Assembly (NCBI RefSeq): GCF_003019035.1
Contig: NZ_CP027447.1
Length of the DNA: 64,000 nt
Source of the DNA: Escherichia coli
Lineage (GTDB): Bacteria; Pseudomonadota; Gammaproteobacteria; Enterobacterales; Enterobacteriaceae
Reading direction: 5' to 3' (one strand)
In this document: positions 18,745-34,216 of the stretch, in pieces
Numbering within the stretch: position 1 is the first letter of the stretch
Layout: each line of letters starts with the position of its first letter
Made by a program: the position numbers and the translations under genes
Notes under the pieces: generated by a model
Told to the model about the DNA's origin: nothing
What the model saw: the letters and a program-made list of their open reading frames with translations, nothing else
The model's database searches: none

Positions 18745-19671
18745 TCAGCATGACGCATTTGAGAATGTTGAATTTACAATTGCCGACTCAGGCACGGCAG
18801 TCAGCGTCCAGTTTTTGACGGCTGACTGAAGGATTTGCTCGACGCTGAAATCCTGCCAGTGTGTTTCTACCTGCTGACCCAGAAAATGAAGTGCCGCGAT
18901 TAACACCGGGCGCGGATCGCCTTTCGGCAACGCAGGCGCATGATTCTGCTTGGAAAGTTTAGCGCCTTGTGTGTTAAGCGCCAGCGGTAAATGAATGTAA
19001 TCTGGCACTTTCCAGCCAAAAAGCTGGTACAGCGAGATTTGTCGCACTGTCGGTTCAATCAAATCTGCCCCACGAACAATTTCTGTGACGTCCTGGAAGT
19101 GATCATCGACCACCACCGCCAGGTTATAGGCAAACAAACCATCACGACGATGAATAATAAAATCTTCTTGCGCCAGTTTTTCGTCGGCGTGAATAATTCC
19201 GCGTAGTTGATCAGTAAACTGCGTGACCGGATGCAACTGCCGAATTCGCACAGCCGCGTTGTCTGGTCCATGATGCAAATCCCGGCAATGACCGTCGTAA
19301 ATACCGCCAATGCTTTGAATACGCGCACGCGTGCAGGTGCAGTAATAACTTAGTCCTTGCTCATATAACCAGGCGAGTGCTTCGCGATAGGCGTGGTGAC
19401 GTTGCGATTGCCAGAGAACGTCGCCGTCCCAGTGCAGGCCGTAATGTTCCAGCTGGCGCAGGATAGTCTCTGCGGCACCGGGAACTTCACGAGGCGGGTC
19501 GATATCTTCTATGCGTACCAGCCAGCGACCTTGCCGGGCGCGAGCCTGTAAATAGCTGCCAAGCGCGGCAATCAGAGAGCCAAAATGAAGCTCGCCGGAA
19601 GGAGAGGGGGCGAAGCGACCAATATAGTGTGTGTCTGTCATCTCTTTGAACAAAAAATAAGGCGGGAGCAT
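18745..19671 (-). CDS. gluQ: glutamyl-Q tRNA(Asp) synthetase
   Basis: 308-aa ORF; class-I synthetase motifs ELHFGS and KLSK. The first 10 codons overlap the dksA terminator, so initiation at 19641 ([10 protein letters not shown]) is plausible. Confidence 0.9.
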
Positions 19672-24093: not shown

Positions 24094-24186
24094 AGACCAA
24101 AGCAAATTTGAGAGATATCTTCTTCTGTCTTGCAACAGAAGAACAGAAAATCGGGCTTTTGCGCCTGAATATTGCGGAGAAAAAGC

Positions 24187-30922: not shown

Positions 30923-32901
30923 GTAAACGAATTGCGCTTTTTCCGGCGTTATTGCTGGCGCTGTTAGTGATTGTCGCTACGGCGCTCACGTGGATGAACT
31001 TCTCGCAGGCGCTGCCGCGCAGCCAGTGGGCGCAGGCCGCCTGGTCGCCGGATATTGACGTCATCGAGCAGATGATTTTTCACTACAGCTTGTTGCCGCG
31101 TCTGGCGATTTCGCTGCTGGTGGGCGCGGGCCTGGGGCAGGTGGGCGTGCTGTTTCAGCAAGTGCTGCGTAACCCGCTGGCGGAACCGACGACGTTGGGC
31201 GTTGCAACAGGCGCGCAACTGGGGATTACCGTCACCACGCTCTGGGCGATCCCAGGTGCTATGGCGAGCCAGTTTGCTGCGCTGGCAGGGGCTTGTGTTG
31301 TTGGCTTAATCGTCTTTGGCGTCGCGTGGGGGAAACGGCTTTCGCCGGTAACGCTGATCCTCGCGGGGCTGGTAGTGAGCCTTTATTGCGGCGCAATCAA
31401 TCAGTTACTGGTTATCTTCCATCATGACCAGTTGCAAAGCATGTTCCTGTGGAGCACCGGAACGCTGACGCAAACCGACTGGGGCGGCGTTGAGCGTTTA
31501 TGGCCGCAGCTGCTGGGCGGCGTGATGCTGACGTTATTGCTACTTCGCCCGTTAACCCTGATGGGGCTTGATGATGGCGTGGCGCGCAATCTCGGGCTGG
31601 CCTTGTCGCTCGCGCGTCTGGCGGCGTTGTCGCTGGCGATTGTCATCAGTGCGCTGCTGGTGAACGCGGTGGGGATTATCGGCTTTATCGGGTTGTTCGC
31701 GCCACTGCTGGCGAAAATGCTGGGGGCGCGGCGTTTGTTGCCACGGTTGATGCTGGCATCGCTGATTGGTGCGTTAATTCTGTGGCTTTCTGATCAAATC
31801 ATCCTCTGGCTGACTCGCGTGTGGATGGAAGTGTCTACCGGTTCGGTCACTGCGTTGATCGGTGCGCCGCTGCTACTGTGGCTGCTGCCGCGTTTACGCA
31901 GCATTAGCGCGCCGGATATGAAGGTCAACGATCGTGTCGCGACTGAACGCCAACACGTGCTGGCGTTTGCTCTCGCGGGCGGCGTGCTGCTGTTGATGGC
32001 TGTGGTGGTGGCGCTGTCGTTTGGTCGTGATGCGCACGGCTGGACGTGGGCGAGCGGGGCGTTGCTCGAGGATTTGATGCCCTGGCGCTGGCCGCGAATT
32101 ATGGCGGCGCTGTTTGCGGGCGTCATGCTGGCGGTGGCGGGCTGTATTATTCAGCGGCTGACCGGAAACCCGATGGCAAGCCCGGAAGTGCTGGGGATTA
32201 GCTCCGGCGCGGCGTTTGGCGTGGTGTTAATGCTGTTTCTGGTGCCGGGTAATGCCTTTGGCTGGCTGTTACCCGCAGGCAGTCTCGGGGCGGCGGTGAC
32301 GCTGTTGATCATTATGATCGCCGCCGGACGCGGTGGATTTTCCCCACACCGCATGTTACTGGCGGGGATGGCGTTAAGTACCGCGTTCACCATGCTTTTG
32401 ATGATGTTGCAGGCAAGTGGTGACCCGCGAATGGCGCAAGTTCTGACCTGGATTTCCGGTTCGACCTACAACGCGACCGAGGCGCAGGTCTGGCGTACTG
32501 GAATTGTGATGGTGATTTTGCTGGCGATTACCCCGCTGTGCCGCCGCTGGCTGACCATTTTACCGCTGGGAGGTGATACCGCACGAGCCGTGGGGATGGC
32601 GCTGACGCCGACGCGAATTGCGCTGCTGCTGTTAGCGGCTTGCCTGACAGCGACTGCGACAATGACCATTGGACCGTTGAGTTTTGTTGGTTTAATGGCA
32701 CCGCATATTGCGCGGATGATGGGCTTTCGACGGACGATGCCACACATCGTAATTTCGGCGCTGGTGGGTGGTTTACTGCTGGTGTTCGCTGACTGGTGTG
32801 GGCGGATGGTATTGTTTCCATTCCAGATCCCGGCGGGGCTGCTGTCGACCTTTATCGGCGCGCCATATTTTATCTATTTGTTGAGAAAGCAGAGCCGTTA
32901 A
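30919..32901 (+). CDS. fhuB: ferric hydroxamate ABC transporter permease (internally duplicated)
   Basis: 660-aa hydrophobic ORF; GTG start overlaps fhuD stop (GTGA). Confidence 0.95.
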   Translation: MSKRIALFPALLLALLVIVATALTWMNFSQALPRSQWAQAAWSPDIDVIEQMIFHYSLLPRLAISLLVGAGLGQVGVLFQQVLRNPLAEPTTLGVATGAQLGITVTTLWAIPGAMASQFAALAGACVVGLIVFGVAWGKRLSPVTLILAGLVVSLYCGAINQLLVIFHHDQLQSMFLWSTGTLTQTDWGGVERLWPQLLGGVMLTLLLLRPLTLMGLDDGVARNLGLALSLARLAALSLAIVISALLVNAVGIIGFIGLFAPLLAKMLGARRLLPRLMLASLIGALILWLSDQIILWLTRVWMEVSTGSVTALIGAPLLLWLLPRLRSISAPDMKVNDRVATERQHVLAFALAGGVLLLMAVVVALSFGRDAHGWTWASGALLEDLMPWRWPRIMAALFAGVMLAVAGCIIQRLTGNPMASPEVLGISSGAAFGVVLMLFLVPGNAFGWLLPAGSLGAAVTLLIIMIAAGRGGFSPHRMLLAGMALSTAFTMLLMMLQASGDPRMAQVLTWISGSTYNATEAQVWRTGIVMVILLAITPLCRRWLTILPLGGDTARAVGMALTPTRIALLLLAACLTATATMTIGPLSFVGLMAPHIARMMGFRRTMPHIVISALVGGLLLVFADWCGRMVLFPFQIPAGLLSTFIGAPYFIYLLRKQSR

Positions 32902-32907
32902 TAGAAT

Positions 32908-32928
32908 GCCTCGCCCGGTGGGCGAGGC
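32908..32928 (-). terminator. hairpin between convergent fhuB and hemL (likely hemL terminator)
   Basis: gcctcgcc-cggtg-ggcgaggc; on the minus-strand RNA followed by auucuauu. Confidence 0.4.
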
Positions 32929-32935
32929 AAAATCA

Positions 32936-34216
32936 TCACAACTTCGCAAACACCCGACGTGCAGCATCGATGGTGTTATTGATATCTTCCATGCTGTGCG
33001 CTACAGACATAAAGCCCGCTTCAAACGCTGATGGTGCCAGGTAAACACCTTCGTCCAGCATCATATGGAAGAAACGCTTAAAGCGTTCCACGTCACAGGC
33101 CATCACATCCTGATAGCACGTCACGGACTCGGCGTCGGTAAAGAAAATACCGAACATGCCGCCAACGTGGTTAACGACCAATGGAATTCCCGCTTCTTCT
33201 GCCGCTTCCAGCAGACCTTCTGCCAGACGTGTTGTCAGCTCATCCAGCGTTTCGTGAACGCCCGGCTGTGCGACTTCATTCAGACAGGCGAAACCGGCCG
33301 CCATCGCAATCGGGTTACCGGAAAGCGTACCCGCCTGATAGACCGGACCAGTCGGGGCCAGCGCATCCATTACATCACGACGACCACCGAATGCGCCTAC
33401 CGGCATTCCACCGCCGATGATTTTGCCGAGGCAGGTGAGGTCTGGCACCACGTCGTAATAATCCTGCGCACCAGCTAGCGCCACGCGGAAACCGGTCATC
33501 ACTTCATCGATGATCAGCAATGCGCCAAATTCGTCGCACAGTGCGCGCAGACCCGGTAGGAACTCTGGCAGCGGCGGAACACAGTTCATGTTGCCTGCTA
33601 CTGGCTCGACAATAATACAGGCAATCTCTTGCGGGTATTGCTCAAACGCGGCGCGTACAGAGGCCAGATCGTTATAAGTACAGGTTAATGTATGTTTGGC
33701 GAAATCTGCCGGAACGCCCGGCGAGTTTGGCTGGCCTAAAGTGAGTGCGCCAGAACCGGCTTTCACCAGCAGGCAGTCAGCGTGACCGTGGTAACAACCT
33801 TCAAATTTAATAATTTTGTCGCGACCGGTAAAACCACGGGCCAGGCGGATGGCGCTCATCGTCGCTTCAGTGCCGGAGTTCACCATGCGCACCATATCCA
33901 TGGTCGGGACCAGTTCGGTCACCAGTTGCGCCATTTTCACTTCCATTTCGGTTGGTGCACCAAAGCTTAAACCACGCTCGGCGGCTTCAATCACGGCATT
34001 GCGGATCGCCGGATGGTTATGGCCCAGCACCATCGGCCCCCAGGAACCGACATAATCGATATAGGCTTTGCCATCAACATCGTACAGATAAGCGCCGTCC
34101 GCTTTTTCGATAAACAGTGGAGTGCCGCCCACGCCAGTAAAGGCGCGAACAGGGGAGTTCACACCGCCAGGGATCAGCTCGCGCGCTGCGCTGTAAAGAT
34201 TTTCAGACTTACTCAT
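32936..34216 (-). CDS. hemL: glutamate-1-semialdehyde 2,1-aminomutase
   Basis: 426-aa [53 protein letters not shown]... Confidence 0.96.

Follow-up and report, generated by a model that had tools for sequence, protein, structure and literature searches.

The spacer between fhuB and hemL in the window (the whole stretch of 64,000 nucleotides analysed here) and the corresponding spacer of E. coli K-12 are alternative, non-homologous alleles. In the reading that fits the evidence best, and which we hold with good confidence, the window carries a short hairpin allele, likely the terminator of hemL, as the alternative to a BIME allele found in K-12 and in about 31% of genomes. The gene fhuB is the last of the ferric-hydroxamate uptake operon fhuACDB, and the product of hemL is glutamate-1-semialdehyde 2,1-aminomutase. 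The RefSeq annotation of E. coli SCU-301 confirms both gene names; over 19 kb this genome agrees with the window at 19032 of 19034 bases. The window spacer reads TAGAATGCCTCGCCCGGTGGGCGAGGCAAAATCA. That it is 34 bp long and holds a single hairpin, as the preliminary description had it, is borne out (Table 1). The K-12 length, put there at about 157 bp, is exactly 157 bp in MG1655 (NC_000913.3), and the two spacers do differ in length.

Table 1. Positions of the features discussed in the text. Window positions count from the first base of the window.
Feature	Position	Strand	Remarks
fhuB, 660 aa	30919..32901	+	ORF list; RefSeq annotation of near-identical E. coli SCU-301
fhuB stop codon TAA	32899-32901	+	
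fhuB-hemL spacer, short allele	32902..32935	.	34 bp; single copy per genome; REP similarity absent
Stem-loop	32907-32929	-	10-bp stem, 8 G-C pairs, 3-nt loop; terminator scan, folding z-scores
hemL stop codon TGA	32936-32938	-	
hemL, 426 aa	32936..34216	-	convergent with fhuB; ORF list; SCU-301 RefSeq annotation
hrpB-mrcB spacer, window	24094-24186		93 bp
hrpB-mrcB spacer, K-12	164535-164729		195 bp
fhuB end, K-12 MG1655	173444		NC_000913.3
hemL, K-12 MG1655	173602..174882		NC_000913.3
Decayed y unit in K-12 spacer	L001 574-594		gives 85-bp direct period
z2 REP in K-12 spacer	L001 605-640	+	34/36 to consensus, ends CTAC
y REP in K-12 spacer	L001 656-690	-	32/35 to consensus, starts GTAG
IS621, E. 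coli C9	L005 (NZ_CP010129.1), about 1180-2457		directly after GTAG of y REP, long allele

When the window is aligned with K-12, the coding sequence on either side hardly differs as far as the two stop codons; of the 34-bp and 157-bp spacers in between, just one base at each end coincides. The window hairpin is missing from K-12, and the REP bases are missing from the window spacer. Since the spacers share essentially no sequence, they are alternative alleles and not one allele with and one without an insert. No deletion from the BIME would yield the 34 bp. The proposal that the window lacks extra sequence present in K-12 is thus not upheld by the alignment to MG1655, which shows two unrelated spacers with one shared base at each end. 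The wider proposal, strain-level variation in REP-type elements, stands in part: the K-12 spacer is indeed made of a z2, a y and a decayed y unit, but the window is not K-12 minus an insert.

BIME-2 elements are alternating y and z2 REPs with short linkers, and their copy number varies between strains (PMC3333891). The K-12 spacer has the features of such a cluster: y and z2 units that alternate in orientation, a short linker (15 nt between z2 and y), the GTAG foot and many copies. Searched with the K-12 interval, E. coli genomes give a median of 9 matching places each, as a dispersed repeat should. The spacer folds into REP hairpins, and the terminator scan finds no terminator-like site in it. 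A REP is an imperfect palindrome of 30-40 nt. Its hallmarks are a conserved GTAG/CTAC tetranucleotide at the foot and a mismatch within the stem (PMC3333891). The window spacer (32902-32935) lacks this tetranucleotide, and its 10-bp stem pairs perfectly, with no mismatch typical of REPs. Against the REP y, z1 and z2 consensus sequences, taken as quoted by Durrant et al. 2024 (PMC11208160), the best local score of the 34 bp on either strand is 6, while shuffled sequences average 7.9 and reach 12 at most. The 34-mer is also not a many-copy element like REP. With blastn (11-base words, E up to 10) it has a single location in each of 3,713 genomes, and with the same settings it is absent from 1,713 genomes without the short allele. 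No extra copy of the hairpin was found beyond the fhuB-hemL junction in the window, in all fetched loci or in the 5,426 genomes.

The stem-loop of the window is laid out as T-GCCTCGCCC / GGT / GGGCGAGGC-A. Its folding energy is -20.6 kcal/mol on the plus strand (z = -3.8) and -26.4 kcal/mol on the minus strand (z = -5.25), both against dinucleotide shuffles. On the hemL strand the tail of the hairpin is TTCTATTAAC (UUCUAUUAAC in RNA), with U at 5 of the 8 positions. The tail on the fhuB strand is AAAATCA (AAAAUCA in RNA), and the U tract is absent. The terminator scan detects the hairpin on the minus strand only, with 2 sites versus 0.4 expected, and shows no terminator-like site on its fhuB strand. 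A G+C-rich stem-loop followed by a U-rich tract, which defines an intrinsic terminator, is therefore present on the hemL strand. The hairpin is unchanged in seven more short-allele genomes whose flanking genes are 3-5% divergent; variation of the short allele is confined to bases 2 and 3 of the spacer, and the hairpin is invariant. A search of Rfam 15 with 32700-33150 gives two chance-level matches only (E = 1.1 and 3.4), far under the gathering score.

The window hairpin resembles Rho-independent terminators between convergent genes in its G+C-rich 10-bp stem, its 3-nt loop and its place 5-6 nt from each stop codon, and on the hemL strand also in its U-rich tail. It differs in that the fhuB strand lacks a U tract, so that by the canonical rule it is at best unidirectional. 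With A's and not U's after it on the fhuB strand, it is non-canonical as a bidirectional terminator. Judged by its sequence, and with a U-rich tail that extends into the stop codon of fhuB, the hairpin most likely serves hemL as its intrinsic terminator. The U tract on the hemL strand would overlap that stop codon, and the hemL transcript would end there. The hairpin would probably also shield the 3' end of the fhuACDB transcript arriving from the opposite side, and may perhaps be a weak terminator for this transcript too. REPs are reported to take part in termination, mRNA stabilisation and protein binding (PMC3333891). In K-12-type strains the REP hairpins could supply equivalent RNA-end and attenuation functions, and plausibly the short and long alleles do the same job by different means.

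The K-12 state is the minority at the fhuB-hemL junction. The 34-bp allele is present in 3,713 of 5,426 complete RefSeq genomes (68%), counting identical or near-identical 34 bp with one copy per genome, and the 157-bp allele in 1,701 of 5,426 (31%); about 12 of the 5,426 (under 1%) have neither, C9 with its IS621 insertion being one of these. A look-up by the exact protein of the neighbouring gene, ErpA, gives seven short and three long spacers among ten assemblies, all E. coli-like contigs. The short allele is found in IAI39, 55989, LF82, O157:H7 and ST131-type O25:H4 strains, of which IAI39 belongs to phylogroup F, 55989 to B1, LF82 to B2 and O157:H7 to E. The long allele is found in K-12, of phylogroup A, and in many small-genome isolates. 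The genome collection does not include UMN026 (phylogroup D) under NC_011751.1. The long allele comes in two haplotypes, with 14 differences over the 157 positions. The MS14385-type haplotype (MS14385, WL297, C9) accounts for about 147 genomes, as counted from identity bands, and the K-12-type haplotype is taken by subtraction as the rest of the 1,701.

The 540 bp of hemL and fhuB next to the spacer do not group by similarity into the allele classes, which fits exchange of the alleles by homologous recombination through these conserved genes. Between E. coli strains, the final 540 bp of fhuB and of hemL can diverge by as much as 5-6% (WL297 versus K-12, for example), and for the window at about 32360-33475 at least 99% identity over 1 kb is found in only 3 of 5,424 genomes. 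Such divergence is high for core genes and suggests frequent local recombination near the junction. The junction with its 34-bp spacer is also matched in two to three records of the E. coli collection that are typed as plasmid; these may be F-prime-like elements or mis-typed replicons.

Outside E. coli, a scan of species representatives with a degenerate pattern for the hemL C-terminus yields 56 Enterobacteriaceae loci, among which E. fergusonii, E. marmotae, E. ruysiae and the E. coli type strain are absent by name. In 54 of the 56, fhuB and hemL are convergent neighbours; their spacers range from 34 to 440 bp, that of the window being the shortest. Among these 54, each spacer of up to 58 bp holds one G+C-rich hairpin, and those longer than 58 bp hold REP-like units or CCCTCTCCC/GGGAGAGGG units. 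The spacer measures 118 bp in E. albertii, 157 bp in Escherichia sp. E1V33, 162 bp in a divergent strain labelled E. coli and 440 bp in Escherichia whittamii (L055). The last has at least three tandem y-z2 pairs, a BIME-2 copy-number expansion at the orthologous site.

All four sampled non-coli Escherichia lineages carry a BIME that can be aligned with that of K-12, including the junctions beside both genes. Flank identity to E. coli is 91-95% in these lineages, in keeping with separate species. With a homologous BIME in all four, parsimony places a BIME at the junction in the ancestor of these lineages, with K-12 keeping the older state. It is thus likely that the REP cluster came first in the genus and that the hairpin allele replaced it later, the direction being inferred from the distribution. 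The hairpin allele would then have spread through homologous recombination in the conserved genes on either side. The gain in K-12 implied by the preliminary description is probably wrong for the genus, since the short allele is held by 68% of E. coli and the BIME is common to the four other lineages.

IS621 is an element of the IS110 family with a bridge-RNA recombinase, and it targets REPs (PMC11208160). In E. coli C9 a copy is inserted in the long allele (Table 1), and this junction was not found outside C9 in the 5,426 genomes. The BIME makes the fhuB-hemL site a target for REP-specific insertion sequences; the short allele offers none.

The hrpB-mrcB spacer, to which the junction had been likened, is also shorter in the window than in K-12. 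Unlike at fhuB-hemL, the difference there is a plain indel with an alignable remainder, and the units involved are not y/z REPs. The extra 102 bp or so in K-12 is a pair of CCCTCTCCC..GGGAGAGGG / GGGTGAGGG hairpin units. We take the CCCTCTCCC/GGGAGAGGG hairpin units to be boxC-like. Besides K-12 hrpB-mrcB, such units fill the same fhuB-hemL junction in Buttiauxella, Cedecea, Kosakonia and Enterobacter. The window hairpin (GCCTCGCCC) differs from them in being single-copy and in lacking the CCCTCTCCC/GGGAGAGGG motif.

Simpler accounts of the short spacer fare poorly. A mere REP/BIME insertion in the lineage of K-12, or a mere deletion in that of the window, with the remaining spacer intact, would agree with the length difference, which is real, with the REP nature of the additional K-12 sequence, and with the neighbouring hrpB-mrcB spacer, which behaves in just this way (93 versus 195 bp). 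Such an event is nevertheless very improbable at fhuB-hemL. It is refuted by the alignment, which shows no such remainder, each spacer having what the other lacks apart from the two end bases, and the BIME is not specific to K-12 but occurs in 1,701 genomes and in four other Escherichia lineages. An assembly or sequencing artefact, with a repeat collapsed in the source genome, has a negligible probability. Short-read assemblies can collapse REP clusters, but 3,713 complete genomes, most of them from long reads, each contain the same 34 bp once, the short form recurs in seven of the ten independent NCBI assemblies, and its sequence is a different one, not a shortened BIME. This recurrence and the unrelated sequence refute the artefact.

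The age of the hairpin allele deserves more thought. In three Citrobacter species the spacer is 36 bp long, and its hairpin shares an 8-bp stem, GCCTCGCC/GGCGAGGC, with that of the window, equally far from the hemL stop. In a position-specific shuffle test this stem is matched by only 1-2% of shuffled or random stems; for a shared 8-mer located anywhere in the E. coli and Citrobacter spacers, about 30% of shuffles reach 8. The resemblance hints that the hairpin allele may be old as well. A possibly old hairpin sits awkwardly with the view that the BIME is ancestral and the hairpin derived. The hairpin allele could then be an ancient unoccupied junction from an ancestor shared with Citrobacter, repeatedly overwritten by REP clusters and kept or re-imported by E. 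coli. Apart from the shared stem, this would suit the REP types and arrangements, which differ among Citrobacter, Salmonella, Klebsiella and Escherichia and suggest repeated gains, and the occurrence of the short allele in B2 and F, which are deep phylogroups of E. coli. We regard it as unlikely, however. All four non-coli lineages have the BIME with homologous junctions, so an ancient hairpin needs a polymorphism lasting through several speciations, or re-import; the sequence flanking the short allele in E. coli is typical of that species as far as the stop codons; and the stem identity amounts to only eight independent bases. It is doubtful, too, that two unrelated long-lived alleles, the GCCTCGCC hairpin and the REP cluster, each recur in Escherichia and Citrobacter. 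If true, this would mean that alleles passed between species, that both were maintained, or that a directed process swaps them. A directed process, e.g. one with a REP-associated transposase, would swap the terminator hairpin and the REP cluster in either direction at a fixed site. Later replacement of the BIME by the hairpin allele is the account that we prefer. In Citrobacter spp. (L006, L042, L049, L036, L058) the REP on the hemL side ends in six or seven T (GTAGGCCGGGTAAGGCG..CCACCCGGCTTTTTT), and this T-run REP is itself shaped as an intrinsic terminator for hemL.

Presence-absence and copy-number polymorphism of REP/BIME in E. coli intergenic regions was reportedly described by Bachellier et al. 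in Genetics in 1997. Polymorphism between E. coli strains is also covered by Ton-Hoang et al. 2012 (PMC3333891). The junction is like these cases in several respects: the K-12 BIME (y, z2) is absent or different in other natural isolates, the copy number goes by lineage (157 bp in K-12, 118 bp in E. albertii, 440 bp in E. whittamii), and the BIME is hit by a REP-specific IS (IS621, strain C9). It differs in that the non-BIME allele is not an empty site but an unrelated 34-bp hairpin, and is the majority allele. Our literature search found no paper on the fhuB-hemL junction. As REP/BIME polymorphism in E. coli has been described since the 1990s, the finding is of an ordinary, already-known kind, and its significance is small beyond bookkeeping. 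The mildly curious remainder is the source of the hairpin allele and its likeness to the Citrobacter hairpin. A difference in spacer length can mask complete replacement of an allele, which calls for caution when K-12 coordinates serve as the intergenic reference. The junction could also serve as a small, clean natural experiment, in which convergent housekeeping units are split either by a terminator hairpin or by a BIME in near-identical contexts. It would let read-through, mRNA stability and susceptibility to REP-targeting IS be compared between the two.
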